51,152 nt of DNA from Treponema sp. GTDB taxonomy: Bacteria > Spirochaetota > Spirochaetia > Treponematales > Breznakiellaceae. The position numbers and the translations under genes were made by a program. Below the pieces are notes generated by a model that saw only the letters and a list, made by a program, of their open reading frames with translations, was not told the DNA's origin and did no database searches. The DNA lies in NCBI GenBank assembly GCA_009777995.1, contig WRKT01000016.1, forward strand, positions 1 through 51,152, given 5' to 3'. This document shows positions 2,361-50,071 of this stretch, one piece after another (the first letter of the stretch is position 1; the number at the start of each line of letters is the position of its first letter).

Positions 2361-2414
2361 TCCATTATTGACAAAAATACATTATTCTGATAATGTTGCA
2401 AGGAGGGATACGAG

Positions 2415-3752: not shown

Positions 3753-3789
3753 AAACATTAATCTCAATATTACGATATTGTTTATGTTT

Positions 3790-3813
3790 AACTTGTATAC
3801 TAGTATACAAGTT
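3790..3813. promoter_or_regulatory. Perfect 24-bp palindrome AACTTGTATACTAGTATACAAGTT overlapping the stop codon of the P-loop kinase gene
   Basis: Read directly from the sequence; 12+12 with no mismatch. It overlaps the last codons and stop of the minus-strand gene 3800-4348 and is not followed by a U-tract on either strand. Either an operator-like site or an atypical terminator. Confidence 0.45.
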
Positions 3814-4887: not shown

Positions 4888-4898
4888 TATGTTCTAAG

Positions 4899-5825
4899 CT
4901 AAAACCTATACGTAAAAACAACGGCAACTCTGCGAAACTCAAGGCGCACAGGTTTATCACTATCCAAAATTCTCCCTGTATAAAAAAGATCATCCCAGTT
5001 TGATTGCAGGTAATTGCGCTGTGTGTGAAACTGCACAGCAATTCCAATATCAATTTGCCTTGTTATAGTAAAGTTAAAAATTGAAGAAAAGGTCCAGTAA
5101 ATTTTATCGTGCCCCCAAGTAGCAGGAGTCGGTGTGCCGTCAAGGTATAGGTCTCTCTCCCCTTCTGCTACAAGGGCTACCATCGAAAGGAAGATTGGCA
5201 TTTGATACCCGAGGATAAAGTTTCCGTAATAATAAAAGCTATTTCGGTTCTCCCCTGCATCGCTTAAATAATACCAAGACTCTGTAAAGGCATCGGCACG
5301 AGAATAAGCCCTATAGCTCATTTCGTGGTAGGTTCTAAAAATCACATGGTTCCAGGCTCCGGGGAAGAAGGCTGCAAGGTCTGCCTGCAGTGCACCCCCG
5401 ATAAAGCCCTTCCAGTGTATTCCGTCAAAGGCTTCTCCCCTATGCTCTCTACCACCGTCCACAAGAGGCCAATTGAATCCTATCCCGTAAATATCTTCAT
5501 CAAAAAGATTTATATTCCAGCCCGATCCGATATTACCGCCCGCATTTAATTCAAGGAATGCTATCGGAGTAAAAATGAGTTCAGTCCTGCCAATAAAATT
5601 AATTGGCGTTAGATCTGCTCCGAGTGCGAGGGTTAGATTATTACCTTCTGTAAGAGGGCTTCCTCCCTGCATGAAGGGAAAGCGGAAGCGAGTAGTAAAA
5701 CCGAGCATTACATCGATGTTGGTTGTAGCGTTAATGGAAAGCTCATGAGATGTGGTTATACCCGTTTCGGCCCAAAGAACCGCTGTAAGAAAAATCAAAA
5801 CGAAAATTAAAAAAGCTTTTTTCAC
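4899..5825 (-). CDS. Putative outer-membrane beta-barrel protein
   Basis: 308 aa. Signal peptide MKKAFLIFVLIFLTAVLWA. Aromatic-rich alternating pattern and a C-terminal ...FTYRF ending in Phe, the classical OMP C-terminal signature. No family assignable. Confidence 0.5.
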   Translation of the reverse strand: MKKAFLIFVLIFLTAVLWAETGITTSHELSINATTNIDVMLGFTTRFRFPFMQGGSPLTEGNNLTLALGADLTPINFIGRTELIFTPIAFLELNAGGNIGSGWNINLFDEDIYGIGFNWPLVDGGREHRGEAFDGIHWKGFIGGALQADLAAFFPGAWNHVIFRTYHEMSYRAYSRADAFTESWYYLSDAGENRNSFYYYGNFILGYQMPIFLSMVALVAEGERDLYLDGTPTPATWGHDKIYWTFSSIFNFTITRQIDIGIAVQFHTQRNYLQSNWDDLFYTGRILDSDKPVRLEFRRVAVVFTYRF

Positions 5826-11359: not shown

Positions 11360-12397
11360 ATGGAAAGATCAAATTTAATTCATTATGAGGAAAAGGAAGC
11401 AAAAACAAGGAGCGGTATGGCCGCATTAATTCTAACGACCCTTGTGATACTCGCCGCCATTGCAGGAATAGTTTACGGCTCAATCCTACTTGCCCGCCTT
11501 GGCCCTGCCTCAGCAGCAGGCATTTTTCTTGTCGTTACAGGAAGCGTATACATTTCGGTTTTTAGCTGGTTCCCGTATATCGGTTTAAAAATAATTAAAC
11601 CAAACGAGGCGCTTGTGCTGACTCTTTTCGGGAAGTATTACGGAACGATTAAGAAAGAAGGGTTTTACTTTGTTAACCCCTTTGTTACCGCGGTTAACCC
11701 TGCCGCAGGAACCACCTCCACAAGCAGTGCCACCGTTACACCGCAGAAAGGCGCAACGACTGTGCCGGGAACAAGTGTCCAGGTTACAGGAATGCCTAGT
11801 TTTACCAGCAAAAAGATTTCACTTAAAGTTATTACGATGAACAACGACACACAGAAGGTAAATGATCAGCTAGGAAATCCCATCATCATAGGTATTGTTG
11901 TGGTGTGGAAGGTTATAAACCCGACAAAGGCAGTTTTTAACGTTGATAATTATAAAGAGTTCCTTTCAATTCAATGCGATTCAGCACTGCGAAACATTGT
12001 GCGGCTTTATCCCTACGATACTTATGGCGATGATAACGAGAAGACCCTCCGCGGAAGCAGTCAGGAAATTGCAATGAAGCTAAGAGACGAAATACAGTCA
12101 AAGGTTGAAATTGCAGGGCTTGATGTGGAAGAAGCACGTATCACCCATCTTGCCTATGCTCCTGAAATTGCGGCGGCCATGCTTCAGAGGCAGCAGGCTT
12201 CGGCAATTATCGATGCAAGGCAGATGATTGTAGATGGAGCTGTGGGCATGGTTGAAATGGCCTTGAAGAAATTGAGTGCAGGTAATATTGTAGATCTGGA
12301 CGAAGAGCGCAAGGCTGCAATGGTGAGTAATCTTCTTGTGGTGCTCTGCGGAAACAGGGATGCCCAACCGGTGGTGAATAGCGGTTCACTGTACTAA
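11360..12397 (+). CDS. SPFH/Band-7 (stomatin/prohibitin-like) membrane protein with low-complexity Thr/Ser insertion
   Basis: 345 aa. N-terminal TM helices, then an SPFH core (IIKPNEALVLTLFGKYYGTIKKEGFYFVNPF ... and a C-terminal coiled region AAAMLQRQQASAIIDARQ). The core is interrupted by the insertion AAGTTSTSSATVTPQKGATTVPGTSVQVTG. Confidence 0.75.
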   Translation: MERSNLIHYEEKEAKTRSGMAALILTTLVILAAIAGIVYGSILLARLGPASAAGIFLVVTGSVYISVFSWFPYIGLKIIKPNEALVLTLFGKYYGTIKKEGFYFVNPFVTAVNPAAGTTSTSSATVTPQKGATTVPGTSVQVTGMPSFTSKKISLKVITMNNDTQKVNDQLGNPIIIGIVVVWKVINPTKAVFNVDNYKEFLSIQCDSALRNIVRLYPYDTYGDDNEKTLRGSSQEIAMKLRDEIQSKVEIAGLDVEEARITHLAYAPEIAAAMLQRQQASAIIDARQMIVDGAVGMVEMALKKLSAGNIVDLDEERKAAMVSNLLVVLCGNRDAQPVVNSGSLY

Positions 12398-34022: not shown

Positions 34023-35027
34023 CTAATCCTTTTCCTTAAGTAATGCATCGTTATTGAGCACTTTGAACGAAGTTGCTTTGGGGGCCATCAAGTCGCGTAC
34101 CACGATGCCTTCTTTATCAAGGCCGCTTGGATATTTTCCCCTTGCCTTTTCAAGCAATTCTTCGAGATTATAGGCAAATTTTTCTCCCTGCTCTTCCAAT
34201 GGAACAATAGAAAGCCCAAGGTCTTTACAAACCTTGCAGGCCTCTTCATAGGGCAAATACTTATTTGAATCCCAATCCTTAACATCAAAAACAAACCATT
34301 CAATTTCGGCCATGCGCAGCTTATTTTTCTGGATCCCGGGGCCGCAAATTTCGCCTGTCAAGACCAGATTTTTTCCATAATTTGCCAATTTCTCTTTTAA
34401 ACCATATTTATAAACGGGAAGCCAATATAGAGCGCCTTCTTCGTCTTTAATTTCCTTATTTCTGCTGCAACAGCCTATTTCCCCATCAATATAATAAACT
34501 ATGCCTGACGTTCCATCCATTTTTGTCGTGATATAATAGGGTTTCCCGCTTAACTTTTCCAATAATTCCGGCTCCGACTGTATACGAATTTCATCGGAAG
34601 CAGGAATTCCGTGGGGGCGCTCCCCGATTATGGTCCCTCCGGGATTTGAGGTTTCAGGGATATACCATTTTTTTACATTGAGCTTTTCAGTAACATCTAC
34701 ACCCTCCCCCGCTCCCACCAGCTCAGGGAATTTTTCAAGGGGAAGCAATAGACCCTGAGAAAGCTGCCCTCGCATTTTAGCAGTACGGATTCTGAAGCCT
34801 TTGCCATTATCTTCATTATCCCGGTATGACGAATTGCGCAAAAATTCATACCTCTCATCTTCAGGCAAAAAGCTGTCTACTTCAAAGTAAACTCCAAGGT
34901 CGCCTTCCTTAAACTCACCCTTTTTTGCAACACATTGCCATCCAAGTACATGGGCAAGCTCCAGAAAATCAGAATCGGGAATGGTGCTTATCATCTTTAC
35001 TCTTTGTATCGTAACCAATGAACGCAT
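34023..35027 (-). CDS. ATP-dependent RNA ligase, Rnl5 family (DraRnl/NgrRnl-like)
   Basis: 334 aa. Adenylyltransferase motif I KMDGTS, with the Lys at about residue 170, is consistent with the reported position in NgrRnl/DraRnl. The N-terminal domain (VTIQRV...GWQCVAKKGEFKEGDLGVYFEVDSF...RIRTAKMRGQLSQGLLLPLEKFPEL) matches, as I recall it, the distinctive N-terminal module of that family. Confidence 0.7.
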   Translation of the reverse strand: MRSLVTIQRVKMISTIPDSDFLELAHVLGWQCVAKKGEFKEGDLGVYFEVDSFLPEDERYEFLRNSSYRDNEDNGKGFRIRTAKMRGQLSQGLLLPLEKFPELVGAGEGVDVTEKLNVKKWYIPETSNPGGTIIGERPHGIPASDEIRIQSEPELLEKLSGKPYYITTKMDGTSGIVYYIDGEIGCCSRNKEIKDEEGALYWLPVYKYGLKEKLANYGKNLVLTGEICGPGIQKNKLRMAEIEWFVFDVKDWDSNKYLPYEEACKVCKDLGLSIVPLEEQGEKFAYNLEELLEKARGKYPSGLDKEGIVVRDLMAPKATSFKVLNNDALLKEKD

Positions 35028-35119
35028 AGCATCCTCCTTACATAGAATTTTTAACTATTATATGATATAGTATTATAAAAAGATATGGTTAGAATATTAA
35101 TAGCTCAAAGGAGGAGTAA

Positions 35120-37567
35120 TTGCTTAGGGAGTTAAGTTTGAAGGTCAAACCTAATGCCAATAAAAAGTTCCTTCTATTTTCGTGTATCCTTTTACTCATT
35201 ATCTTTACCATAGCTACTTCGGCATATACAATTTCGGTTCGCCAAATAAACAGATCATATATAGAACAACAGCTCTCAATCGCGGCAGAAACCATTAGAC
35301 TTCGTCTTGCAACAACGATAAATAACGAGCTTCCTCTTGTGATGAAACTTGGTGATACTCCGGTCATTCGCCAATACTTTCTAGATCCATCTGATCCATA
35401 TCTTAGGGATCGTGCACATGCCGAATTTGAACTTTATCGAGAGCATTTTAGAACGAGGCTCATTTTCTGGATTAACGATGTTGATAAAATTTTTTATTTT
35501 ACAGGGAATGACCCGTATCTTATGGACCCTGATGATCCTGAAAACTACTGGTATAATCTTACACTTTTCCAAACCGAAACCCATAATTTAAATATTAATT
35601 ATAACCCTGAGCTTAGGCAGATTTATCTCTGGATAAATGTTCCTGTATTCTCGGAGACCGGAGTGCCGGTTGGGATGCTTGGAACCGGCATTGATCTGAC
35701 CGAATTCTCGGATTTTGTGTCTACTGCATATAGAGAATTCGACAGAAACATAACATCATATATGTTTAATAAGTTTGATGAAATTACTTCCGCTATGGAC
35801 ATTGAGCTGATGCATAATAAGGTTCGCTTAGACGATCACCTTGGAGATGCCGGAGCAGAACTTCTTATGATTTCACGCACACTAATTGATGAAGAAGTCA
35901 GTACCATCACAAGCGGAGGGATAATATATCAGTTAAGATCGATACCTGCAATGGAATGGTATCTTGCAGTGAGCTATCCGGCTCCCGGTTTTCTTTCATT
36001 AAATCAATCAATGAATACTGTGTTTTTTGGAATGCTATCTCTAATTTTGTTAATGTTCATTATAATGAACGTTTATATTCACCGCTCAGAAAATACACTG
36101 GCAGAAAATAATCTGCGATTAATTGAGGCAAATCGCATAGCAGAGTCTGCATCGCAGGCAGCGTTAGAGGCATCTCAGGCAAAAAGTGATTTCCTTGCAA
36201 ATATGAGTCATGAAATACGCACACCCATGAATGCTATTACAGGAATGTCAGAGCTTCTTCTCCGCAGAGACCTTAACGAAGATGCCCGAAGCGATGTCAG
36301 GGACATAAAACAGGCTGCAACCAGTCTTATTTCGATCATAAATGATATTCTTGACTTTTCAAAAATAGAAGCAGGCAAGCTTGAAATTATACCTGTTAAG
36401 TATATGCTTTCATTATTAGTAAACGATGTCGTTAATATAATCCGAACACGCATATTAGAAAAGCCGGTTCAACTTATTATGAAGGTCGATGAAAAAATTC
36501 CTGACAATCTTTTTGGAGACGAGGTCCGCTTACGGCAAATTATCCTTAACCTTCTTTCCAATGCTGCAAAGTTTACAGACGAGGGTCAAATAGTTTTATC
36601 AATTACTATAGAAAGCCAAAAAGGAAAGCAAGTTTTCCTAAAAATAGCTATAAGCGATACAGGGAGAGGTATCAAATCTGATCAAATAGAGAAACTTTTT
36701 TCAGATTTTATGCAGATTGATACAAGAAAGAACCGGAGCATTGAAGGGACAGGACTTGGACTTGCAATCACCAAACGGCTTTGCGACGCAATGGGCGCAA
36801 GCATTTCTGTGACAAGTGAATACGGCAAGGGCAGCATTTTTACAATAATTATGCCGCAAATAATTGACGGATACAATACATCTCCTTCATTAATAAATAA
36901 GTCTGAAAATTTTAGCATTAAAAGCATATTCCCTGACGCAAGACTTCTTATTGTAGATGATACGCCAATTAATTTAAAAGTTGCGGAAGGCCTTTTATTG
37001 CCCTATAAAGCAAAAATTGACACTTGCCTAAGCGGAGAAGAGGCAATTGAGATAATTAAACAAAGGCAGGGCGAGCAAGCTTACGATCTCGTTTTCATGG
37101 ATCACATGATGCCTGAAATGGACGGCATTGAAACTACCGCCGCAATCAGAGCTTTGGGAGTGCAAGTGCCAATAATAGCATTAACCGCAAATGCAGTATC
37201 CGGAATGAGAGAAATGTTTTTGGAAAAAGGATTTAACGATTTTCTTGCCAAACCAATTGATGTCTCTAAACTTGACGAAATACTTAGTAACTGGGTCACA
37301 AGTAAGAAGAGAGACTCGCAATTCGGCAATTCCGACATAATTGAAGACATAAATTCTTTAGTAGAAGAATTAAAAAAATTACAAATAGCCTGTGAGGATT
37401 ATAATGCAAAATCTGCATATTCAATACTTGATATCATAAATGAAAAAGAGTGGAAGCCTGAAACAATTACTGCAATAAAAGAAATCCGGAATGCATTATT
37501 ACATAAAGATTTCGCAGGCACCTGTAAACTGATTGATGTCTTAATTGAAAATAAGAAGGCTTCATGA
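35120..37567 (+). CDS. Hybrid sensor histidine kinase (periplasmic Cache-like sensor, HisKA, HATPase_c, REC)
   Basis: 815 aa. TM, a roughly 260 aa extracytoplasmic domain, TM, H-box [13 protein letters not shown] boxes ([23 protein letters not shown]), receiver (LLIVDD...[14 protein letters not shown]...KP), and a roughly 100 aa helical tail. TTG start with AAAGGAGGA ribosome-binding site. Confidence 0.85.
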
Positions 37568-40500
37568 AATCGCGACCGGTATTTACTATAAAATTGATAG
37601 TCCCTTTGCTTTATACCGTCGCCATTATTGCTTTAGTCTTATATCAGTGGAATGAGCAAACAATTACAGTTAGACAAGGCGGCTCTAATCCATTATACCG
37701 CAACCTCATGGACTATCCTGCCTATATCCGGCATGGGTTTGATGTGTCAGATACCATTAGGATTCCACAGGAAAACAGCACATGGTTTCGTTTTTCTGCT
37801 CCTCAGCTAAGGATAATCAATTCTCCTCTGCCCGATCTTCCGCAAAGGACCTTCCTTTCAATTCGCGGCAGGGAAGCAGAGGAATTTACAATTATCATAC
37901 CCATAGAGTTTGACTCAACTGCATTGACTTCGGGAATTGAACCGGGGATTTATCTTGGTTATATAGGCGAGAACTGGGAGGTATACTTAAACGGACACCT
38001 CGTACAAAGACAAATGCACTTAAACGAGGCAGGTCAAATTATAAGCCGCAGGAACTGGAGAGGGGTACATTTCCCCTTTTCAGGCAGCATATTACTTGAA
38101 GGAACAAATATACTTGCTTTCAGAATCATTGGCGATCCTACATACGGTGTTACAGGGTTATATTACTCATCACCTTATTATATAGACGATTATAGTATAA
38201 TTAAACGACGACACCTTGATATTCTCTCTATGATTCTATGCGGCATTTTTGGCTATACAGGATTATATTACATGATAATCTTTCTTTCTGTAAGAAAGAA
38301 AAATGAGCTTTATAATCTTTATTATAGTATTTCTTCCATTATACTGTGTATTTATACGCTCATGTTCAGCGGAATAATAAATAATATAATTCCTAATTCA
38401 GATATAACGATTCGACTTGAATATGTATCATTATTTATGCTTGTTCCAATGCTCGGCTGTTTTATCGAGCATTTCGGAGCACAGAAAATAACAAAAATAA
38501 CGAGAGGTTTCCTCATTTTCTACGGATCATTGAGTCTGGCACAGATCTTTTTTAGCACCCAATTCGGCGATGACATTTTAATGATTTGGAGCGCCTCCGT
38601 TTTAATCTATTTTTCTTACATTTTCTTTTTTAATATAACGCGATACTATATCCGCAGAAGACGCAAAGAAAACATCGATACCTTAATAAGCAATATCCTT
38701 ATTGGCCTTGTGGTAGTCTACCTCTGTGGTATTTATGATGTTTTGGACATAATATTTTTCCATAATTCATCGAGCTTATTTTTATACAGCACCTTTATAT
38801 TCCACTTGGGCATGGCAATAACCCTATCGCAACGGTATCAGGAAATGTATGGTCAATTGGAAGAATCGAATATCATACTTGAAGAAAGAGTCCAAGAACG
38901 TACTTTGGAACTGGAAGAGCAGACAGCTATAGCTCTTGAAGCTTCAAAAGCGAAAAGTAATTTTCTTGCAATAATGAGCCATGAAATCCGCACCCCATTA
39001 AACGCAGTAATCGGTTTTTCGGAGATAGAACTTCGCAATGATCTTCCGTCTTCAATAAGAGAAAGCTTTACTCATATTCATCGATCAGGCTCCTTCCTTC
39101 TAGGAATAATAAATGAAATACTTGATATCTCCAAAATTGAATCAGGTAAACTCGATTTAATAAATGATGAATACGAAACTGCAAGCCTCCTAAGCGGAAC
39201 CATAAGCCTTAACAGGGTAAGAATTGGCGAGAAACCGATACAGTTCATCCTGGAAATAGACTCAGGGTTCCCGACAAAACTTATAGGGGACGAACTGCGA
39301 GTTAGACAAATACTTAATAATCTGCTATCCAATGCAATAAAATATACAAACGAAGGGACAGTAAAACTAGCAGCAAGCAGCGAAAAGACAGGAACCAACG
39401 AAGTCCGGATACAGTTTACGGTGACTGACACAGGCATCGGCATAGACTCGGAAAGCATGGAAAAGCTCTTCGATAATTATACACAGCTTGATACACAGGC
39501 TAATAGAAGAAACGAAGGAATCGGCCTTGGCCTTGCAATTACGAAAAGCCTTGCCGAGATGATGGGAGGCGGCATTTCTGTAGAAAGTGAATACGGCTCC
39601 GGCTCATGTTTTACTGCATGGATTATTCAGGAGCAAAATGACATAGAGATAATCGGAGAAGAAACGGCGGAAGCCTTACGGAGCTTCAGCTATGCATTTG
39701 ATATAAACCCTGAAAGTTCTATTCAGGAAAGAAACCAAATTGAATCAATTGATATACCTGAAGGCAGGATTTTGGTAGTAGATGATATACCTGAAAACCT
39801 GCTTGTCGTAAGAGGGTTCTTAAAACCTTATGGTCTTCAAATAGATACAGCAGGGTCAGGAAGGGAGGCCATTGAACTTATAGAGAAGACTAATATTTCC
39901 GGAGAAAGCTATCATCTTATTTTTATGGATCATATGATGCCCGAGATGGATGGCGTTGAAACCTTAAAAAATATCAGAAAATTAGGTGTCGAGACACCTA
40001 TGATCATTCTAACATCAAATGCATTAAGGGGCATGAATGAATTTTATATGGAACATGGGTTTCAAGATTACCTTTCAAAACCAGTAAACCCTAATGAGCT
40101 GGATAGTGTTTTAAGGAAATGGCTTATTAATGATAACTCCTCAATAGATGATAATATCAATTTTACTACTGCACTAAACACACAAAGACTGGATAAACTA
40201 AACCATTTTCGCTTTGCCTTTGATTCAGGTAGAGATATCGAACCTGCATTTTTTAAGAGATTTAACGCTTTAATTCAGACACTCAGAACAGTTAACAATG
40301 AGCTTGCAGAAGCTCTGATTGAAGCAGGAAATAATGAAGATGCCAAAAAGATCCGTGAAATACTTCCGGATTTTTTTAACATAATGGAGAATCAATTAAT
40401 AGAAAGCAGAAATAGGAGAATAGAGGAATTCGATTTTTTAGAAATTCTAAAGCGCATAAAAAAATTGATTGAAGATGATGAAATTACCGAAGCCGGGAAA

Positions 40501-40635
40501 ATATTAAAAGATATTGGGATGATGAACTTAAACCAAGAAGAACGAGACCTATACTTTATCCTATACGATTCCTTAATGGAAGATAAACTCGAAAAAACCA
40601 TCGAAGATATAGATAAGTTTTTAATGCAAGCATGA
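37564..40635 (+). CDS. Hybrid sensor histidine kinase with 7TMR-DISM (7TM receptor with extracellular DISMED2-like domain) input
   Basis: 1023 aa. Signal/TM, a roughly 190 aa extracellular domain, 7 TM helices, H-box [11 protein letters not shown], HATPase ([23 protein letters not shown]), receiver (ILVVDD...[14 protein letters not shown]...KP), and a roughly 270 aa C-terminal helical region without a recognisable Hpt HxxKG motif. ATGA overlap with the upstream kinase. Confidence 0.85.
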
Positions 40636-40742
40636 ATAAATATACCCATAGGGCCGGTAAAAAGTGTCCAAATGTCTAACCGTATATGGCCGCCTTTCCC
40701 CGGTTTTTTTCCCGGGAAAAGGATATACTTTAATATAGGCGT

Positions 40743-41372
40743 ATGATTAAAATTCTAATCGTAGAAGATCAAACCATGCTGCGTAACTCATTGGAATATC
40801 TTATAAACGGACAAAATGACATGGAAGTGGTGGGAACGGTGGATGACGCTGCCAAAGCACCGGGCCTATGCCGCGAATTACAGCCTGATCTAGTCTTGAT
40901 GGATGTGGTAACCAAGAATAATACAACCGGCATTCACGCAAGCGGAATACACTTTACAGCCGATATACGCAAGGAATTTCCGGATATAAAAATAGTAATT
41001 ATGACAGGGCTCCCCGAAATAACATTTGTAGAAGAGGCAAGGAGAGCAGGTGCTCATAGCTTTGTGTATAAGGAAATGGATAATGAGCATCTATTTCATG
41101 TTATTCGCACCACAATGAAAGGCTACTCTATCTATTCAGGCTCTTCAGATCACATGCCCTTTGCAGCAAGTTTTACGGAAAAAGAAATCGCAGTAATCCG
41201 CCTTGTATGCAAGGGGATGGCCCGCGATGAGATAGCGAAAAAAATGAATGTTTCAGAATCCATGATAAAGCAATATATTACCTCCATTCTGGATAAAACA
41301 GGGTTTGACAGTATTTCCAAATTTGCAATATACGCGGTGGGACAGGGTCTCGTTGCCCCGGATATCCATTGA
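40743..41372 (+). CDS. LuxR/FixJ-family response regulator (REC + HTH_LuxR) with atypical receiver
   Basis: 209 aa. The REC has a single acidic pair (ED), the phospho-acceptor LMDV, and a roughly 20 aa insertion (TKNNTTGIHASGIHFTADIRKEF). The C-terminal LuxR HTH is TEKEIAVIRLVCKGMARDEIAKKMNVSESMIKQYITSIL. Confidence 0.75.
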   Translation: MIKILIVEDQTMLRNSLEYLINGQNDMEVVGTVDDAAKAPGLCRELQPDLVLMDVVTKNNTTGIHASGIHFTADIRKEFPDIKIVIMTGLPEITFVEEARRAGAHSFVYKEMDNEHLFHVIRTTMKGYSIYSGSSDHMPFAASFTEKEIAVIRLVCKGMARDEIAKKMNVSESMIKQYITSILDKTGFDSISKFAIYAVGQGLVAPDIH

Positions 41373-42727: not shown

Positions 42728-42745
42728 AAACCTCGTATGAGGTTT
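42728..42745 (+). repeat. Conserved intergenic hairpin element copy 1 (AAACCTC-GTAT-GAGGTTT)
   Basis: Palindromic CTCGTATGAG core immediately after the stop of gene 41478-42722 and 25 nt before the AGGA ribosome-binding site of gene 42771. One of three copies. Confidence 0.6.
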
Positions 42746-42770: not shown

Positions 42771-43754
42771 ATGGCTTTTTGTACAAACTGCGGGGCAGAT
42801 GCTAAAGATATTAATTTTTGCCCAAAATGCGGGACCCGGGTGGGCAATGCACCGGCGGCTGCACCGGAGCCGGCTGCTCAAGCGGCACCCCAACCACGGA
42901 CTGTAACAGTCGGGCAGGTAAGAAAATGCCCATCCTGCGGCTCTCCGATTGAATCCTTTCAATCCAGATGCGGTGCCTGTGGTCATGAGATCAACTCTGC
43001 AGGGGTATCGGAGGCCATAAAAGAGTTTACCACGCAGATCAATTCTCTTGATGAAAAGATTGCAAGAGAAAAGGTGGTGCCTGAGAAAAAATCTTCCTCT
43101 TCTTCATCCAAGATGCCCAAAATGTCCAAGAGAACCCAAAGGTCCCTTGTAAGAACAGGCACTGCAGGTGTTGCAGGTGCTGTAATTAGCTCTACCCTTA
43201 CAAGCTCGAGTAGTAATAAATCCGGATCAGGCTCGGGAAAATCTGTTGTAGGAGGCTTCCTGCTTATAGGCTTCTTTGTAGGCGTTATTGCGCTAATCGT
43301 AAAAATTACAAAGAATTTCAGGAACGCAATCGCACGCCCTGTAATGTCACCATCGGAGAAGGTGAAAAAAAGCTATATAGAAAATTTTGTTGTACCAAAC
43401 ACCAGAGAAGACATGCTGGAATTTGTTCTCCTTGCATCATCAAAAGCTGAAAGCGTTATAGAACTCGGGTCAGGCGAAACAATGGGTGAAATATCAAGCG
43501 CACATTATTGGGCAAAGGTATGGGAGAACAAGTGCAGAAAGGTCGAAGACAGGGCCCTTATAGCCTTGCAGGGCGATTCCCAGACCCTTAGCCAAATCAA
43601 AAGCTTCCATGACAGATCAAAGGAAAAATTCTTAACAATTACAAAGGCAAAAAAGAAGGGGCAAGTTAAATCCATCATCCTCTTCATATTTATGCTTACC
43701 TTAATCGTAATAGTAACTTTATTCATCTTATTTTTATTGCTCATGTTTATTTAA
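42771..43754 (+). CDS. Double zinc-ribbon membrane protein (YdjG/TcaA-like architecture)
   Basis: 327 aa. Two zinc ribbons (CTNCGADAKDINFCPKCG and CPSCGSPIESFQSRCGACGHE), an Ala/Pro-rich linker, a Ser-rich low-complexity stretch, a TM helix (GFLLIGFFVGVIALIV), a soluble region, and a C-terminal TM helix. Confidence 0.6.
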   Translation: MAFCTNCGADAKDINFCPKCGTRVGNAPAAAPEPAAQAAPQPRTVTVGQVRKCPSCGSPIESFQSRCGACGHEINSAGVSEAIKEFTTQINSLDEKIAREKVVPEKKSSSSSSKMPKMSKRTQRSLVRTGTAGVAGAVISSTLTSSSSNKSGSGSGKSVVGGFLLIGFFVGVIALIVKITKNFRNAIARPVMSPSEKVKKSYIENFVVPNTREDMLEFVLLASSKAESVIELGSGETMGEISSAHYWAKVWENKCRKVEDRALIALQGDSQTLSQIKSFHDRSKEKFLTITKAKKKGQVKSIILFIFMLTLIVIVTLFILFLLLMFI

Positions 43755-43772
43755 ATACACAGGAGGAGTGTT

Positions 43773-45260
43773 ATGCCAATTTTCGGAAACAAGGACAAAT
43801 CAAACAAGGGCGGCGCATTTGCCGACATGATTATGAGCCCCGAGCAGAATAGGGATTGGCTCATTTACAAATGGCGGCCCGAGGGGGAAGAAGCAGGAAG
43901 TACAAGACGTGAAAATTCCATCCGCTATTCTTCGGGTCTTACGGTTAGACAGGGGGAAGTCGCTGTTTTCCAGTATGCAGGGACAGTTCCCGGCGGAAGT
44001 CAGGATTATATCGAAGGTTACTATAGCGATTCCATCAAAACAGCAAACCTTCCGATCCTTGCAAACATAGTTGGTGCTGCTTACGGAGGAGGCACTCCAT
44101 TTGCTGCCCAAGTTTATTTCATCAACCTTGCAGGTGTAAATCAGGTGCAATTCGGTGTTCCATATTTTAACATGTTCGATCCACGTCTTCCCGATCATCC
44201 TGTCGAGGTAACTGTTCGGGGAACCATCACTTTTAAAATAGTCGATTATGTAAACTTTGTTAACTTACAGTCTCTTGTCGATTTTGACATGAGTAAATTC
44301 AGCAACCAGGTGAAAAATGCTATCATCGACAATGTAAGAAATACAATGATGGACATTATGGTGAAGCTCGGACGGCCCCTTGCTCAAATCGAAACCTATA
44401 GGCGCGAGATAAAGGCAATTCTGGAGCCGGATTTGATGGCAAACTTGCTGAATATCTATGGTGTTACAATAGTGGATCTAAACCTTGCAGCCATAGAAAT
44501 CAACAAAGAATGTGAAGGGTATCAGAAGATGGCCAAGCTTACCCAAGTACAGGCAGAAACTCAGATCGAACTTGGTGCCCAGGGAATGAGAGATCAGTAT
44601 GCAATAAATATGCAGACTAACGCTGCGATGGCTGCTGCACAGGTTGAAAACCAGGCGGAGGCAATGCGCATTAATCGTGAGGAAAACCAATACGCCCAGA
44701 GAATGCAGACAGACCTTGGCGGTATGGAACTGCACAGGCTCAGGGCGCAGACAGAAATGGTTAGTGCAACTGCAGCCGGAATGGGTGCTATGGGCGCAGG
44801 TGGTTCCGGAGGCGGCGGCCTTAACCCGGGCGCGATGGTCGCAGGGATGGCAATGGGCAGCACTGTCGGACAGAGTATGGCCGGCATGATGGGCAACGCG
44901 CTTAACAATATGAACCAACAGATGCCGGGTATGACACCTCCGGGCTTACCGCCGCAGGGAGCTCCGCCGCCGATACCGGGTGCAGCCGCACCCCCGCCCC
45001 CGGGAGCTCCGGTTGCAGCACCGCCAAGCTTAATGTTCAGCGTTTCAGTGGACGGGCAAGTATACGGCCCGTTCGACATGAATGCCCTTGTTCAAATGGC
45101 AGGCGCAGGCCAAATAAACGCCCAAAGCATGGTATGGAGAGAGGGGATGCCTGCTTGGCAACAGGCAGGAGCTGTACCTGAGCTTGCCGCACTATTCGCA
45201 GGTGCTTCGCCTCCGTCGCCTCCGCCGCCTCCTCTTCCCGGAGGAAATCATGGGCTCTAA
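43773..45260 (+). CDS. SPFH-domain protein of the Band_7_1 / YdjI (so-called virion-core-protein-like) type, with C-terminal polyproline tract and GYF-like (DUF4339) domain
   Basis: 495 aa. The N-terminal roughly 260 aa match the YdjI-type SPFH pattern (LIYKWRPEGEE...TVRQGEVAVFQYAG...YFINLAGVNQVQFGVPYFNMFDP...TVRGTITFKIVDYVNF). Then a Q/A/M-rich coiled region, a G/A/M-rich stretch, the polyproline PPGLPPQGAPPPIPGAAAPPPPGAPVAAPP, and a terminal domain FSVSVDGQVYGPFDMNALVQMAGAGQINAQSMVWREGMPAWQQAGAVPEL. Confidence 0.7.
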   Translation: MPIFGNKDKSNKGGAFADMIMSPEQNRDWLIYKWRPEGEEAGSTRRENSIRYSSGLTVRQGEVAVFQYAGTVPGGSQDYIEGYYSDSIKTANLPILANIVGAAYGGGTPFAAQVYFINLAGVNQVQFGVPYFNMFDPRLPDHPVEVTVRGTITFKIVDYVNFVNLQSLVDFDMSKFSNQVKNAIIDNVRNTMMDIMVKLGRPLAQIETYRREIKAILEPDLMANLLNIYGVTIVDLNLAAIEINKECEGYQKMAKLTQVQAETQIELGAQGMRDQYAINMQTNAAMAAAQVENQAEAMRINREENQYAQRMQTDLGGMELHRLRAQTEMVSATAAGMGAMGAGGSGGGGLNPGAMVAGMAMGSTVGQSMAGMMGNALNNMNQQMPGMTPPGLPPQGAPPPIPGAAAPPPPGAPVAAPPSLMFSVSVDGQVYGPFDMNALVQMAGAGQINAQSMVWREGMPAWQQAGAVPELAALFAGASPPSPPPPPLPGGNHGL

Positions 45261-45615
45261 TACAGGCTTTTCAATGGACAGACTTTTAGAATTTGGCATG
45301 AATGCCGCAGTCGCAGGTCAGGTTATGCGTAACATGAACCAAACAATGAGCGAAACAATGCAACCTTGGCCTGCTTCGATGAAGGGGCCCGGAACAACCA
45401 TGCCTCCATCACATCTATATTATGTTGCTCTTGACGGTAAACAGGCGGGGCCTTTTTCCGAGACCGAGATTATAAGGCTTGTGAACGAAAAAAGGATCAC
45501 AAAGGATACATTGGTTTGGCATCAGGGGATGCCTGCTTGGAAGCGAGCTGAAGACCTGCCCGAGATGCTTCGTATAATTGCACTTGCACCTCCGCCGCTT
45601 AATGTTATCGCATAA
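45250..45615 (+). CDS. Small stand-alone GYF-like (DUF4339) domain protein
   Basis: 121 aa from ATG 45250 (GGAGG ribosome-binding site; overlaps the upstream stop). YYVALDGKQAGPFSETEIIRLVNEKRITKDTLVWHQGMPAWKRAEDLPEM, then PPPL at the C-terminus. The track start at 45184 is an alternative start codon in the same frame. Confidence 0.6.
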   Translation: MGSNTGFSMDRLLEFGMNAAVAGQVMRNMNQTMSETMQPWPASMKGPGTTMPPSHLYYVALDGKQAGPFSETEIIRLVNEKRITKDTLVWHQGMPAWKRAEDLPEMLRIIALAPPPLNVIA

Positions 45616-45624
45616 GAAGATTCT

Positions 45625-47208
45625 ATGGCAAAGAGAAGAAATACCGGCGGTACGAGAGTGATGCGGCTTACACAACAACAGATGATGATGATGGGGATGG
45701 GCGCTATGATTCGACCTAATATCAGGAGCAGAGGCATACAAGCCAAGGCGCCTCAACAGGAGCAGAGGCTTTTCTATGCTGTGCTCGACGGCAGACAGGC
45801 AGGGCCTTTTTCCATCGCAGAAATGTCACAGCTAATAAGTCAAGGAAGTATCGCAAGAGAAAGCCTTGTGTGGAAACAGGGAATGTCTGCATGGCAGCAG
45901 GCCCATATTACCCCTGAGATTATGATGCTTTTCCCGCAATCTGCAGTACCACCGGTAGGATCATTGCCGCCGCCTCCTCGCCCTATGCCACCTCAATCCA
46001 TGCCTCCGCCGCCAAAGCAGACCTGGGAGCATTACTATCTTCCGATAGAAGGCATCCTGAACGAATGCCCGGTTAACGAAGAAGATCATGAAGAAAATAT
46101 TTCTGCTGAAACGCAGGAGCAAGCTGCAATGATTCTGGAGATCTTAGCTGATTTCAGAATTGAAGCAGAAGTCACAGGAATTATCCGCGGGCCTGTAGTT
46201 ACAATGTACGAGATACTCCCTGCAGCAGGGGTTAAACTGTCAAAGATATCCGAGCTTGAAAACAATATCGCCTTGCGTCTTGCAGCTAAATCCCTTAGGA
46301 TACTTTCTCCCATTCCGGGGAAAAATGCAGTTGGTATTGAAGTACCAAACAGGAAACGCGAACTTGTAAGTTTTAGGAAAACTATTGAAAATTGCTTTGA
46401 GGGATATACTGCACATTCTCAAAAAGCTTTACCGGTATTTTTAGGAAAAACAATTACGGGTGATATTTTATCAGCTGATCTTGCTACAATGCCGCATCTC
46501 CTTGTAGCAGGTACAACAGGCTCAGGCAAGTCGGTGTGCATCAATTCTATTATCCTTTCGCTTCTTTACCTGTTTACTCCTGATCAATGCAGAATGATAT
46601 TTATTGATCCGAAGATTGTCGAGTTAAAATTCTACGATGGGATTCCCCATCTGATTACCCCCGTTATACATGAGAGTGAAGGTGCTCTCAGGGCTCTTCG
46701 CTATTGTGTCAGCGAAATGGAAAGGCGTTATGATGTGCTTGGCAAGGCTTCTGCAAGAAACACCAAATCGTTTAATAAAAATGCCGAAGAGAAGGGCTCA
46801 CCTCTTTTACCCTATTGGGTTGTTATAATTGATGAGTATGCAGACCTTATGGCAGTTTCAGGCAAGGAAACCGAAGGGCTCATAGCTCGACTTGCAGCAA
46901 AAAGCCGTGCTGTCGGCATCCACTTAATTCTTGCAACTCAAAGGCCGTCAACGAATGTGATCACGGGAATCATAAAGGGCAATATACCTGCACGCATCGC
47001 CTTTATGGTTGCATCTAACAATGACAGCCGAATAATTCTCGACTCATCAGGTGCAGAAAAGCTTCTTGGCAAAGGTGACATGCTCTACTCAAGTAATGAT
47101 GCACCGTTTCCAATTCGTGCACAAGGCGCTTATGTCTGCGAAGATGAGGCAGAGAAAGCCGCGACACATCTCAGGAGTCTTGGAAGGCCTGAATATGTGG
47201 ATATATAA
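45625..47208 (+). CDS. FtsK/SpoIIIE-family motor ATPase (alpha+beta domains only) with N-terminal GYF-like domain and polyproline tract; no TM anchor, no gamma domain
   Basis: 527 aa. Residues about 49-100 FYAVLDGRQAGPFSIAEMSQLISQGSIARESLVWKQGMSAWQQAHITPEI; polyPro PPVGSLPPPPRPMPPQSMPPPPKQ. Residues about 130-527 align along their length with the E. coli FtsK motor: Walker A PHLLVAGTTGSGKSV, MIFIDPK, GIPHL, Walker B VVIIDEYADL, ATQRPS, IPARIAF, GKGDMLY. The protein ends GRPEYVDI, exactly where the FtsK gamma domain would begin. Confidence 0.8.
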   Translation: MAKRRNTGGTRVMRLTQQQMMMMGMGAMIRPNIRSRGIQAKAPQQEQRLFYAVLDGRQAGPFSIAEMSQLISQGSIARESLVWKQGMSAWQQAHITPEIMMLFPQSAVPPVGSLPPPPRPMPPQSMPPPPKQTWEHYYLPIEGILNECPVNEEDHEENISAETQEQAAMILEILADFRIEAEVTGIIRGPVVTMYEILPAAGVKLSKISELENNIALRLAAKSLRILSPIPGKNAVGIEVPNRKRELVSFRKTIENCFEGYTAHSQKALPVFLGKTITGDILSADLATMPHLLVAGTTGSGKSVCINSIILSLLYLFTPDQCRMIFIDPKIVELKFYDGIPHLITPVIHESEGALRALRYCVSEMERRYDVLGKASARNTKSFNKNAEEKGSPLLPYWVVIIDEYADLMAVSGKETEGLIARLAAKSRAVGIHLILATQRPSTNVITGIIKGNIPARIAFMVASNNDSRIILDSSGAEKLLGKGDMLYSSNDAPFPIRAQGAYVCEDEAEKAATHLRSLGRPEYVDI

Positions 47209-47224
47209 AAGATAAGAGGTAAAA

Positions 47225-48046
47225 GTGAAGAGAGTGGTTGTTTTGTTGGTAGTTTGTTTACTCTTTGTGGGGTGTAACAGGAATCCTTTGACCGGTCAGA
47301 GGACTATAGCTCTTGTTAGTAACAACACACTTTTTCCTATGGCGTTTCAGCAATATGAAGATTTTTTGAATGAAAACACATTGGTAACAGGAACTGCAGA
47401 AGCAGAAATGGTAAGACGGGTGGGAGACAGAATCAGGCTGGCAGCGGAAAGCCTCCTGGCTGCCGAAGGTCATGAAAATTATCTGGATGATTATCAATGG
47501 GAGTATCATTTAGTTCAGAGTAATGAAGTTAATGCATGGGTTATGCCGGGTGGTAAGATTGTTATCTATACCGGCATACTCCCGCTGGCAGGCAACGAAG
47601 ACGGCCTTGCGGTGATCATGGGGCACGAAGTTGCCCATGCGATACTTAACCATGGGCAGCAAAGAATGAGTGCAAGCCTGCTTCGAGAAATTGGCAGGTT
47701 GGGTATTTCCATTGGCGCTTCACTCCTGGATCTTCCTTCCGACACTCAAAGATTGATCCTGGCTGCCTACGGTGTTGGCTCACACTTGGGTGCTATTCTG
47801 CCATTCAGCAGAAGCCATGAAAACGAAGCGGATTACTATGGTCTAATCCTAATGACAATCGCCGGTTATGACCAGAATGCGGCGGTCAGCTTCTGGGAAA
47901 GAATGGCAGCTTTGGGAGGAGGAGGTCTTGAATGGCTAAGCACCCATCCATCAAGTGAAAACAGAGCCGGTCAGCTTCAGGGTTGGATTCCCGAAACAAG
48001 AGAAATAGCTGACCAAATTAAGCTATCAATATCTTATGTACAATAA
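47225..48046 (+). CDS. M48-family (YcaL/LoiP/BepA-like) zinc metalloprotease lipoprotein
   Basis: 273 aa. Lipobox LLFVGC. NAWVMPGGKIVIYTGIL, HExxH as AVIMGHEVAHAILNH, and the third ligand region SRSHENEADYYG. This matches the periplasmic M48B pattern. GTG start. Confidence 0.8.
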   Translation: MKRVVVLLVVCLLFVGCNRNPLTGQRTIALVSNNTLFPMAFQQYEDFLNENTLVTGTAEAEMVRRVGDRIRLAAESLLAAEGHENYLDDYQWEYHLVQSNEVNAWVMPGGKIVIYTGILPLAGNEDGLAVIMGHEVAHAILNHGQQRMSASLLREIGRLGISIGASLLDLPSDTQRLILAAYGVGSHLGAILPFSRSHENEADYYGLILMTIAGYDQNAAVSFWERMAALGGGGLEWLSTHPSSENRAGQLQGWIPETREIADQIKLSISYVQ

Positions 48047-48088: not shown

Positions 48089-48508
48089 ATGAAAACCATG
48101 ATCAAAGTATTCGGAGTTATAGTATTTATCGCTGTAATTAGCTTATCAACGGCAACTGCCCAATCTGCACAAAACATTGGCAGAATAACCATTACCGAGA
48201 TACCGGCCCGGTATGACGGTAAATTTATAATGCTAACTGTAGACACAGGTGGTTCCGGTGCCAGAAATGTGGCATGGGGTACACGGACAATAAACGGCAC
48301 TTCGACTACCATCAACTTGCTTGACTGGGTTACTGACCAACCGACAACCATAAATGCAGGTAATTATGGGCTTAATATAATCCTTGCCGCCAACATGTCT
48401 GCCATTGCAAATGATCAGGAAGAGTTTATAGGCATTATAATGGCCAGAGCCCTTTCCGGAGAAACAGTTTCAGTAGAATGGGGTGAGTTCATGGATATGA
48501 CAAACTAA
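48089..48508 (+). CDS. Small secreted protein, unknown family (paralog A)
   Basis: 139 aa. SPase-I signal peptide (…STATAQS/AQ). Conserved core ITEIPARYDGKFIMLTVDTGGSGARNVAWGTRTI...LLDWVTDQPTTI..GNYGLNIILAANM. Confidence 0.5.
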   Translation: MKTMIKVFGVIVFIAVISLSTATAQSAQNIGRITITEIPARYDGKFIMLTVDTGGSGARNVAWGTRTINGTSTTINLLDWVTDQPTTINAGNYGLNIILAANMSAIANDQEEFIGIIMARALSGETVSVEWGEFMDMTN

Positions 48509-48550
48509 TCCATAACATGCATTAAATTGTTCGAAAGGAGGCGTAGTTTT

Positions 48551-49600
48551 ATGAAAAGGCTGAGTGTATTCTTGGTTTTGTCTTTATTCATTACAGTTTG
48601 TTTAATTGCACAAACTGCCCAAAGCCCCCGGGAACTGCGCCTTGGGGGAGTCCCTGTTTCGGGAACCCTGCAATCCGGCTCTGAAATATGGTACAGTGTA
48701 AGACCTTCTTCAAACGGATTCATAATAATCGAAACCACAGGTAATACAGATACTTATCTTGATGCCTATGATGAACGCAGAAACTTTCTTATGGAAGATG
48801 ATGATGGCGGCGAAGGTATTAATGCCCGTATAGAAATCTATGCTGAAGCCGGCAGAACATACCTGTTTAAACTGAGAGGTTTTGGGAGCCACTCAACAGG
48901 TCCATATCAGATATGGGCAAGCTCAGAACCTGTCCCTGTTGCTATACAGCTAATCTCCGGAACAGAGCGTCAGGTAAGCCATTTGCCCGGAGCAAGAAAC
49001 TGGTTCAGTGTCCGTACTACGGCAGCCGGCTATCTTGTCGTAGAAACTTTCGGCAATGAAATAGACACTTTCATGGATCTATATGATTCCGGATACAATC
49101 TTTTAAACCGGGATGATGATGGCGGCATGGGCCTTAATGCCCGAATTGAAATTCTTGCTGAGCCTAATCAAACTTATTACTTTATGGTTAGGGGATGGAG
49201 TGATATTACGGCAGGTTCATATACCATTCTGGCAGTTCATGAACCAATTCCTCAAGACACTGATCGTAACACCGAACGCGGAAGAGCTGTTGCCATAAGG
49301 CTTGGAGAAGCAATTCCTGTTTATTTCCGCGCTATAAATGAATCACGTTGGTACCGTTACGATATAACACGACCCGGAACTGTTTTTGTTGTGCAAACCA
49401 GGGGAAACCTGGACACTACATTGCTTCTCTATGACAGCCGTGGGGTACTTATCGCTGAAGATAATTATTCAGGCGATTACCCAAATAATGCACTGATTTA
49501 TGAAAGACTCAATCCGGGAACTTATTTAATTGAAGTAAGAACATATACAAATGGCGTAGGTGTTACAGGCCGCTGTACCCTTCATGCCGAAACACGTTAA
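48551..49600 (+). CDS. Secreted protein of three tandem PPC-like (bacterial pre-peptidase C-terminal-type) repeats
   Basis: 349 aa from ATG 48551 (AAGGAGG ribosome-binding site). Signal peptide. Three roughly 110 aa repeats share L..G....G.L......WY.V.....G...VET.GN.DT.L.LYD..G..L..DDDGG.G.NARIEI.A.....YY..VRG......G.Y.I. Confidence 0.5.
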   Translation: MKRLSVFLVLSLFITVCLIAQTAQSPRELRLGGVPVSGTLQSGSEIWYSVRPSSNGFIIIETTGNTDTYLDAYDERRNFLMEDDDGGEGINARIEIYAEAGRTYLFKLRGFGSHSTGPYQIWASSEPVPVAIQLISGTERQVSHLPGARNWFSVRTTAAGYLVVETFGNEIDTFMDLYDSGYNLLNRDDDGGMGLNARIEILAEPNQTYYFMVRGWSDITAGSYTILAVHEPIPQDTDRNTERGRAVAIRLGEAIPVYFRAINESRWYRYDITRPGTVFVVQTRGNLDTTLLLYDSRGVLIAEDNYSGDYPNNALIYERLNPGTYLIEVRTYTNGVGVTGRCTLHAETR

Positions 49601-49645: not shown

Positions 49646-50071
49646 ATGAAAAGCATGATCAAAGCATTCGGAATAGTTTTACTAATTACAGTAATCGGTA
49701 TATCAATGGGAGCCTGTGCATCATCTGCAAGTCCAAGGGTAACTTATAATAGCGTAACCATTACAGATATACCGTCAGCGTTTGAAGGTAAGTTTGCAAT
49801 GCTAACCTTGGACACAGGCGGTTCAGGAGCCAGAACTCTTGCCTGGGGCACTCGGACCATAACCGGATCTTCAGCTACATTCAACTTGCTGGATTGGGTT
49901 ACAGATCGACCTACAACCATTAGAGAAGGCAATTATGGAGTTAACTTAATCATTGCGGCTAACATGACTGCAATTACCAATGATGAAGAGGAATATGTAG
50001 GCATTATCATGAGCAGAGCCTTTTTTGGAGAAACAGTTTTAATAGAGTTTGGCGAGTTGATGTCGTTCTAG
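49646..50071 (+). CDS. Small lipoprotein, paralog B of 48089-48508
   Basis: 141 aa. About 60-65% identical to paralog A across the mature region, but the signal peptide ends in the lipobox ISMGAC, so it is predicted to be lipidated while paralog A is not. Confidence 0.5.
   Translation: MKSMIKAFGIVLLITVIGISMGACASSASPRVTYNSVTITDIPSAFEGKFAMLTLDTGGSGARTLAWGTRTITGSSATFNLLDWVTDRPTTIREGNYGVNLIIAANMTAITNDEEEYVGIIMSRAFFGETVLIEFGELMSF

Follow-up and report, generated by a model that had tools for sequence, protein, structure and literature searches.

A tagged, gamma-less FtsK paralog of Treponema as a candidate client of a YdjI-like SPFH-GYF scaffold

Why does a gene for an FtsK-type DNA motor lie among genes for a membrane-associated SPFH scaffold? 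The question is raised by a 51,152-nt contig from an NCBI metagenome-assembled genome (MAG) of Treponema sp.; the window, below, is this whole contig. Five of its plus-strand genes encode, in order, a zinc-ribbon (ZnR) membrane protein, an SPFH protein with a GYF domain, a small GYF protein, an FtsK paralog and an M48 lipoprotein protease (Table 1). We consider it rather probable, on comparative sequence grounds, that the paralog is a DNA translocase docked by GYF-polyproline contacts to a YdjI-like sub-membrane scaffold, and that it represents a lineage-specific elaboration of a widespread module.

The genes and domains listed in a first-pass annotation of this contig proved to be real. Open reading frame (ORF) calling reproduced the five plus-strand genes with spacings of 18, -11, 9 and 16 nt, hidden Markov model (HMM) scores for all proposed domains, including GYF_2 and Band_7_1, exceeded the Pfam cut-offs, and hydropathy together with Pfam bore out a ZnR protein with two transmembrane (TM) helices, an FtsK without TM or gamma domains and a lipoprotein M48. 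In canonical FtsK, the N-terminal four-helix membrane domain provides septum targeting and the gamma winged-helix domain reads KOPS and activates XerD. The window's paralog matches GYF_2 (56 bits), FtsK_alpha (PF17854; 99 bits vs a cut-off of 23) and FtsK_SpoIIIE (PF01580; 185 vs 24) in Pfam, with no match to FtsK_gamma (PF09397). It has no hydrophobic segment (KD19 maximum 1.44), its N-terminus being the GYF domain, and it ends about 30 aa past the last motor motif, with the M48 gene beginning 16 nt on. Against the NCBIfam FtsK equivalog NF007615 it reaches 382 bits (cut-off 1566), and the closest solved structures are the FtsK motors of Pseudomonas aeruginosa and Escherichia coli (2iuu/2ius; E about 1e-107).

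A database search yielded about 30 proteins, 420-590 aa long, that combine GYF_2 with alpha and beta domains but lack gamma, all of them from metagenomes or Treponema/Spirochaetia MAGs. Canonical spirochaete FtsKs (750-920 aa) rank below these short paralogs, and motor identity to canonical Treponema FtsK is 57-61%. In a neighbour-joining tree of the motor regions, 32 TM-less, gamma-less proteins form one clade apart from 87 canonical spirochaete FtsKs. Because every member of this clade terminates 0-8 aa beyond the motor, gamma loss is, by this comparison, ancestral to the clade and not a frameshift or truncation in this contig; the FtsK ORF does not run on into TM- or gamma-encoding sequence, an eventuality for which the first-pass annotation had allowed, and its relatives likewise end at the motor. 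Decay of a duplicate, or an error of assembly or annotation, would leave a truncated and functionless ftsK fragment and explain why two of the four canonical FtsK regions are missing, and one database relative, P0008, is indeed a mis-assembled FtsK with a duplicated motor. However, 32 independent sequences from many samples have the same boundaries and intact catalytic motifs, the window's ORF is uninterrupted and the N-terminal tags are conserved domains; these conservation data rule out an artefact or pseudogene, to which we attach next to no probability. P0008 itself (726 aa, NCBI LBP69_02555), which has a gamma domain and a high score, was rejected as an evolutionary intermediate, being a canonical FtsK in which a segment of the motor is duplicated internally, most likely by mis-assembly.

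Walker A, Walker B, ATQRPS and GAEKLLGKGDMLY are kept across the paralog clade, 163 of 235 canonical-invariant FtsK positions are retained at >=90% in the paralogs, and the five fixed differences between paralogs and canonical FtsK are each conservative. By analogy with canonical FtsK, we infer that the paralog is still a double-stranded-DNA translocase, blind to polarity signals without gamma. The alternative of a protein substrate, with the motor working in the manner of the type VII secretion ATPases or, by analogy with HflK/C-FtsH, unfolding proteins for the M48 protease, draws on matches of the motor to EssC/EccC models, on the SPFH cages that enclose the FtsH hexamer (7wi3, among our fold matches) and on the protease gene that adjoins the motor gene. 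Yet the EssC/EccC matches reach at most 117 bits, far under the cut-offs of those models, vs 382 bits for the FtsK model (TraB likewise scores far lower), the motor has, beside its identity to bona fide FtsK, an alpha domain and almost every residue that is invariant in canonical FtsK, and M48 is periplasmic and missing from most FtsK-bearing loci. We regard a protein substrate as very unlikely. In a metagenome scan with the paralog alignment and generic motor motifs, only canonical FtsK loci were among the matches listed, at <=59% identity.

The motor gene keeps the company of the SPFH module in its relatives as well. In all nine paralog loci with enough upstream sequence (the window, L001, L004, L005, L007, L088, L089, L090 and L091) the module lies upstream on the same strand, and two cut contigs, L002 and L003, each open with a small GYF gene. 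The motor gene stands between the small GYF gene and a gene for a four-TM (4TM) protein in L003, L004 and L005, and after the 4TM gene in L001, L007, L088 and L091. Conservation of the FtsK-like gene next to SPFH and ZnR genes, proposed by the first-pass annotation as a check, was found at every informative related locus. The association is not one syntenic block, because the outer flanks differ among clades (FGE-sulfatase, xanthine-dehydrogenase-like and LUD-domain genes, transposases). In the unbiased GTDB set described below the paralog occurs in one of 80 loci (L007), and from this distribution FtsK is a lineage-restricted Treponema/Spirochaetia add-on to the module.

What points to docking, beyond linkage, is that the motor carries the tag of its neighbours. 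Its N-terminus repeats their cassette of a Met/Asn/Gly-rich motif, a GYF domain and polyproline, and FtsK GYF domains share 58-83% identity with those of their own or a sister module; in the window itself, the FtsK and small-protein GYF domains are 47% identical and those of the small protein and the SPFH protein 33%. One-GYF motors occur with one-GYF small proteins (window, L007, L089, L090, L091) and two-GYF motors with two-GYF small proteins (L001, L004, L005). Three further motors, L088/P0029 (L088 7722-9293), P0030 and P0032, are polyproline-only: they have no GYF domain, and a conserved N-terminal helix D-P-L-L-S-I-x-x-V-F-A-E-Q-L is followed by ~100 polyproline residues. The L088 motor, the only one of these with locus context, adjoins two small GYF genes. 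Of 85 SPFH-GYF proteins, 82 have proline-rich motifs beside the GYF domain, as do 6 of 7 motors; among background ORFs the count is 22 of 1064 (2%). All three GYF domains in the window are flanked by proline tracts. Such tracts span aa 385-418 and 476-490 of the SPFH protein and aa 103-131 of the motor, and the ZnR protein has one at aa 25-45. A Met/Gln-rich motif, M-F-A-x-Q-x-M-N-x-M-N, precedes GYF in other, GYF-bearing paralogs and in small GYF proteins.

The nearest relative without GYF, P0024 (L086/L087; 70% motor identity), carries a double zinc ribbon as its tag. Ribbons with 55-70% identity to it stand at the C-terminus of the TMEM43-like membrane protein encoded next door and, in about three copies, in a small 144-aa protein downstream. 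The L086 arrangement is thus, as far as gene content tells, the same logic with another tag and another scaffold, and scaffold, small protein and motor would carry one common tag in two unrelated tag systems. From these loci we conclude that a minimal motor is repeatedly given a small tag matching that of the adjacent membrane-associated scaffold. Such tag matching is the strongest argument for docking through the predicted tether, and it strengthens the GYF/polyproline tether first proposed for this locus, as does a precedent for GYF_2: the GYF domain of GltJ binds a proline-rich sequence of AglZ with micromolar affinity (PMC11135422). Experimental evidence of such binding comes only from GltJ and from GYF domains of eukaryotes; that the window's GYF domains bind peptides is predicted from their proline flanks and the co-variation of tags.

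The most serious rival shares the operon without the docking: the motor would be an SftA-like accessory of segregation or division, co-transcribed with the module, its GYF tag aimed at some other proline-rich protein, for example one of the divisome. Division proteins bring soluble SftA to the septum (PMC5357621), GYF ligands differ between systems (PMC11135422), and the L086 relative has no SPFH neighbour. This alternative leaves unexplained, however, why tag type and copy number co-vary with the adjacent genes (one GYF, two GYF, polyproline-only, zinc ribbon); FtsK is moreover inserted between module genes in three loci, and the replacement tag in L086 is again common to the adjacent membrane protein. 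We judge it rather unlikely and continue with the docked translocase.

The arrangement we envisage is as follows. The ZnR protein would anchor the soluble YdjI-type SPFH protein at the inner membrane, in most relatives together with the ~115-aa 4TM protein, and the SPFH protein would probably oligomerise via its long helix, as other SPFH proteins do. Its flexible tail bears a Gly/Met-rich motif, polyproline and a GYF domain, the cassette of which the neighbouring small protein is made. In a Treponema/Spirochaetia subclade, a duplicated chromosomal ftsK motor has shed its membrane and gamma domains, gained the cassette at its N-terminus and entered the module. Multivalent GYF-polyproline contacts among SPFH tail, small GYF protein and motor could concentrate an FtsK alpha-beta hexamer at the SPFH platform, where it would stay an ATP-driven pump for double-stranded DNA that, lacking gamma, neither reads KOPS-like signals nor activates Xer. 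Its role would most likely be that of a membrane-tethered accessory pump moving or clearing DNA at scaffold-defined sites, comparable to SftA beside membrane-bound SpoIIIE. The M48 lipoprotein would serve the scaffold rather than the motor, as an optional partner on the periplasmic side.

Several points weigh against this arrangement. Docking is predicted from comparative patterns, and the data favour none of division, repair, DNA transfer and defence as the role. Of the nine linked loci, seven were retrieved via the FtsK protein itself; they represent several related lineages, not a random sample, and the motor tree is midpoint-rooted with no bootstrap support. A comparison of accession blocks revealed no canonical ftsK in the same MAG, none of nine canonical Treponema FtsKs falling in the block of the window's SPFH protein (MCL2007971.1). 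A six-frame HMM search found no 4TM gene in the window (best E-value 0.29), and the strict proline-rich motif is present in just 24 of 68 small GYF proteins. Finally, L086 suggests that the motor can work with a non-SPFH partner, and SPFH may be non-essential for motor function.

A more far-reaching proposal, which we hold to be unlikely, is a class of tag-matched scaffold-motor machines by which DNA would be translocated at the cytoplasmic membrane or through it, to an end other than chromosome dimer resolution. In such a class, and with equally little confidence, the SPFH assembly or the TMEM43-like protein might capture an FtsK hexamer by analogy with the way HflK/C organises FtsH, and the two-TM ZnR and 4TM proteins might conceivably supply a conduit or site of action. 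Purposes that could be entertained, just as speculatively, are DNA export or uptake between gut treponemes, the expulsion of invading DNA and DNA clearance during membrane repair.

The module without its motor is widespread. The Band_7_1+GYF_2 architecture was found in more than 2,700 proteins by database search, and a GTDB scan with one genome per species gave 418 confirmed SPFH-GYF relatives, of which the best 80 loci were analysed; these are drawn from at least five phyla (Spirochaetota (Spirochaetia), Bacteroidota, Clostridia, Fibrobacter, Collinsella). ORFs were called at each locus and searched with the window's proteins, and components were counted over 90 SPFH-GYF loci. The gene order is fixed as ZnR-TM, SPFH-GYF, small GYF (~115-120 aa) and 4TM, with the small GYF gene missing in many Clostridia. 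The ZnR gene adjoins SPFH-GYF in 77 of the 90 loci, at times split into ZnR_N and ZnR_C genes; small GYF is present in 63, 4TM in 62, tagged FtsK in nine and M48 in seven. L038 is a tenth FtsK-containing locus, but its FtsK is canonical, 6 kb off and on the opposite strand. The 4TM protein, recognised by clustering of neighbouring ORFs, has about 115 aa, four hydrophobic helices and no Pfam family. At L088, an inserted FRG-domain gene separates the ZnR gene from the SPFH gene.

The claim that the five genes form one module therefore needs to be recast: the genes are real and linked, but the widespread unit is a scaffold of three to four genes, the FtsK gene being a rare insertion and the protease gene optional. 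Nor can ZnR, SPFH-GYF, small GYF, FtsK and M48 together be called one undescribed unit, the core module being widespread and the SPFH+GYF architecture published. Balaji and Aravind (2007; PMC2034487) described the same domain architecture computationally, with proline-rich stretches and TM-protein neighbours; that work covers neither the operon composition (ZnR-TM, small GYF, 4TM) nor any FtsK fusion. Two further readings were discarded. A single frameshifted gene at 43773-47208, considered in the first-pass annotation, does not apply, as the GYF-bearing genes are separate in every related locus and a 4TM gene intervenes in several. A phage or mobile-element origin was rejected on finding no FtsK paralog and only two SPFH-GYF relatives in viral contigs.

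The surroundings of the FtsK-bearing loci bear on another possibility, an anti-phage or conflict system in which the scaffold places an FtsK-type ATPase to sense or expel invading DNA, with M48 or the membrane partners as effectors. The FtsK domain matches the PADLOC models SspH and mads8, most FtsK-bearing loci have toxin-antitoxin or transposase genes no more than a few kb away (Table 1), the distribution is patchy, and evolution is faster in the paralogs than in canonical FtsK (mean distances 0.276 vs 0.158). But the PADLOC matches (SspH, mads8, HerA) cover the generic motor only, and SPFH, GYF and M48 have no defence matches; there is no nuclease or other toxic effector, and the window's 51 kb are ordinary chromosome, with metabolic and transport genes around the module and no mobile or defence genes. 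Viral contigs essentially lack the core module, which is stable and widespread, and toxin-antitoxin genes are perhaps simply abundant in these genomes. We consider a defence system quite unlikely, and return to the docked translocase and the remaining members of its operon.

The M48 protein is a clear family member (Peptidase_M48, 107.5 bits vs a cut-off of 20.3) with HEXXH at aa 134 and a signal peptide with the lipobox LFVGC; NCBIfam matches of LoiP/BepA type are weak and under the equivalog cut-offs. Its orthologs lie behind the motor in L090 and L091 (67-70% identity to the window) and 3' of 4TM in the FtsK-less L008 and L009 (49-55%). None was found in the FtsK-bearing L001, L004, L005, L007 and L088, nor in the equally close L089. 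By this pattern M48 accompanies the module facultatively, in a single spirochaete lineage, and tracks the module rather than FtsK; as a fixed member of the system, the place it had first been given, it does not stand, being absent from six FtsK-bearing loci and present after FtsK-less modules.

The other proteins were examined by hydropathy, domain searches and structure prediction. The ZnR protein has two hydrophobic segments by hydropathy, and its helical domain is modelled with a pLDDT of about 88 by AlphaFold2 (AF2); the SPFH, small GYF and FtsK proteins have no TM segment. The SPFH protein scores 77 bits for Band_7_1 (PF13421; cut-off 24), the family to which the first-pass annotation assigned YdjI, and 61.8 bits for GYF_2 (PF14237; cut-off 25.8 bits). 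Its AF2 model has an SPFH core (pLDDT about 80-88) and the 85-residue helix; the tail is disordered in it, and the GYF domain is predicted with confidence. Top Foldseek matches of the model are stomatin, HflK/C (including the FtsH complex), prohibitin, flotillin and QmcA cages, and the modelled GYF domain matches those of GltJ, GIGYF2 and Smy2. The Gly/Met/Asn-rich segment of the tail contains an invariant MAGMMGN motif. Within aa ~340-375 (window 44790-44900), M359, G362, G366 and M369-A370-G371-M372 are invariant among 20 diverse homologs; the segment resembles a glycine-zipper-type motif and may contact the membrane or a partner protein. The small GYF protein (GYF_2, 66.4 bits) has the GltJ GYF domain (7z3c) as a PDB match with E 8e-7; its gene, which overlaps the SPFH gene by 11 nt, has an alternative TTG start at 45184.

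Table 1. Positions of the module genes, their protein segments and selected features of related loci.
Feature	Position	Strand	Basis or detail
ZnR membrane anchor, 327 aa	window 42771-43754	+	ORF call, Pfam DZR / Zn_Ribbon_1
ZnR protein: zinc ribbons	aa 4-24 and 52-73		with disordered Ser-rich linker
ZnR protein: TM1	aa ~160-183
ZnR protein: all-helical domain	aa ~190-300
ZnR protein: C-terminal TM2	aa ~300-327
SPFH-GYF protein, 495 aa	window 43773-45260	+	ORF call, Pfam Band_7_1 + GYF_2
SPFH protein: Band_7_1	aa 45-248
SPFH protein: 85-residue helix	aa 248-332
SPFH protein: Gly/Met/Asn-rich segment, proline-rich tracts
SPFH protein: GYF_2	aa 419-474 (nt 45027-45194)
SPFH protein: C-terminal tail			PPSPPPPPLP
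Small GYF protein, 121 aa	window 45250-45615	+	ORF call, Pfam GYF_2
Small GYF protein: N-terminal segment			Met/Asn-rich
Small GYF protein: GYF_2	aa 54-109 (nt 45409-45576)
Small GYF protein: tail			short, APPP
FtsK paralog, 527 aa	window 45625-47208	+	Pfam GYF_2 + FtsK_alpha + FtsK_SpoIIIE
FtsK paralog: N-terminal motif			Met-rich
FtsK paralog: GYF_2	aa 47-102 (nt 45763-45930)
FtsK paralog: polyproline	aa 103-131 (nt 45931-46017)
FtsK paralog: alpha domain	aa 153-242
FtsK paralog: beta/RecA motor	aa 262-527
FtsK paralog: motifs			Walker A AGTTGSGKS, Walker B IIDEYADL, ATQRPS
M48 lipoprotein protease, 273 aa	window 47225-48046	+	Pfam Peptidase_M48; GTG start
4TM protein	L004 9642-9995
4TM protein	L005 8397-8747
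4TM protein	L091 6162-6512
ZnR-tagged FtsK variant locus	L086 5728-9829 (also L087)		TMEM43-like (PF07787) with two zinc ribbons, sigma-70 factor, ZnRx2-FtsK P0024, 144-aa ribbon protein
MazE-PIN	L001 9857-10491
PemK/ParD	L004 13524-14227
Phd	L005 10342-10638
RelB	L086 11080-11385
rve transposase	L088 9635-10442

That the five genes form a single operon stands in part. Spacing is tight and no terminator-like site was found on the plus strand inside 42771-48046, in a promoter and terminator scan whose sites were no more numerous than in shuffled sequence and whose coverage does not extend to spirochaete promoters; but the ends are undefined, because the flanking genes run in the same direction across short gaps of 48 and 42 nt. 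In the 48-nt gap between an upstream lipoprotein gene and the ZnR gene lies a perfect 7-bp hairpin (AAACCTC-GTAT-GAGGTTT, 42728-42745), with no T-run on the plus strand, which may mark the upstream operon boundary. Upstream of the module (35120-41372), the window has genes for a LuxR/GerE-type response regulator and for two hybrid histidine kinases, of which one contains a 7TM sensor; two of its closest relatives also have a GerE-type regulator gene upstream, with a large ORF before it (L089 1-2764, L090 1-2747), and a similar regulatory cluster precedes the ZnR-FtsK variant (L086 1-5610). A regulatory link between this two-component cluster and the FtsK-bearing module is possible. Synteny between the window and L086 through these clusters was rejected, the kinases being just 35-49% identical and the downstream genes unmatched.

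Other features of the contig lie apart from the module. A second SPFH protein, of classic Band_7 type (PF01145, 94 bits), is encoded 30 kb upstream (11360-12397, +), and an RNA ligase with a PHA02142-type OB-fold domain (34023-35027, -) lies beside a DUF1801 protein. Downstream, two paralogous ~140-aa putative secreted proteins or lipoproteins without a Pfam family (48089-48508 and 49646-50071, +) enclose a PPC-domain protein (48527-49600); a PPC-domain protein also lies directly 3' of FtsK in L089. G+C is 0.32-0.37 in the first 5 kb (1-5000), 0.35-0.40 over the histidine-kinase genes (35000-41000) and 0.42-0.52 elsewhere, the highest values belonging to the proline-rich stretches of the module (45-46 kb).

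How new is the arrangement? Literature searches on the GYF/FtsK/SPFH combination, PF13421 and DUF4339 found no description of it, so that part of the first-pass claim to novelty holds for the pairing of SPFH with FtsK, but soluble FtsK paralogs and SPFH-GYF proteins are each known separately. What appears undescribed is an FtsK motor that has neither gamma nor TM domains and bears an interchangeable docking tag matching that of the membrane scaffold encoded beside it. An FtsK-family motor is usually positioned by its own membrane domain; for SftA, the divisome does this. If confirmed, docking would offer a simple modular rule for the targeting of DNA pumps, through an interchangeable GYF, polyproline or zinc-ribbon tag, and would give the SPFH-GYF module of thousands of gut and environmental bacteria its first identifiable client. 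The paralogs are also a natural experiment in how an FtsK motor operates without gamma, and the GYF-polyproline pairs are small, soluble and readily assayed.

Among known systems, the PspA-YdjGHI (SamGHI) system of Bacillus subtilis offers a close parallel. There, the soluble SPFH protein YdjI is recruited by the TM proteins YdjG and YdjH and recruits the client PspA (PMC8581546), and it likewise has a low-complexity tail ending in a small adaptor domain (PMC8581546; bioRxiv 10.64898/2026.02.06.704340). In both systems the SPFH gene adjoins a gene for a membrane protein with N-terminal zinc ribbons. The adaptor is a GYF domain in the window and a zinc finger in B. subtilis, and the candidate clients are the small GYF protein and the FtsK motor rather than PspA. 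The likening of the ZnR protein to YdjG in the first-pass annotation proved weak: YdjG has two zinc ribbons, an NTF2-like domain and one TM (PMC11237479), whereas the AF2 model of the window's protein places an all-helical domain between two TM helices, and among roughly 47 window ORFs scanned we found neither a PspA domain nor a TPM/YdjH-like gene near the module. GltJ of Myxococcus gliding has a homologous GYF_2 domain, and zinc-ribbon and GYF modules operate at the inner membrane in both cases; in GltJ, however, they share one polypeptide with a TonB-C domain, the partners are MglA, MglB and AglZ, and the system serves gliding, whereas no motility genes lie at the window locus.

HflK/C-FtsH and QmcA-YbbJ share the SPFH fold and the long helix with the window's protein and show, as precedents, that an SPFH assembly can organise a hexameric ATPase and that SPFH and protease genes can be paired. 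HflK/C and QmcA are membrane-anchored, face the periplasm and partner FtsH or NfeD, whereas the window's SPFH protein is cytoplasmic and TM-less, its ATPase is a RecA-type DNA motor and its protease a periplasmic M48. With canonical FtsK (E. coli, P. aeruginosa, Treponema) the paralog shares the alpha and beta motor and all ATPase motifs, but it has neither the 4-TM N-terminal domain nor the gamma (KOPS/XerD) domain. A membrane-free FtsK paralog is not in itself unprecedented: SftA of B. subtilis is a soluble FtsK-like translocase (PMC5357621). It is a second FtsK-family translocase without a membrane domain and is localised via other proteins, as the window's paralog may be. SftA keeps gamma and is recruited by the divisome, whereas the paralog has no gamma, bears a GYF/polyproline tag and has its gene inside an SPFH operon. 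Judging from the motor tree, in which the paralog clade branches among spirochaete FtsKs, the two arose independently.

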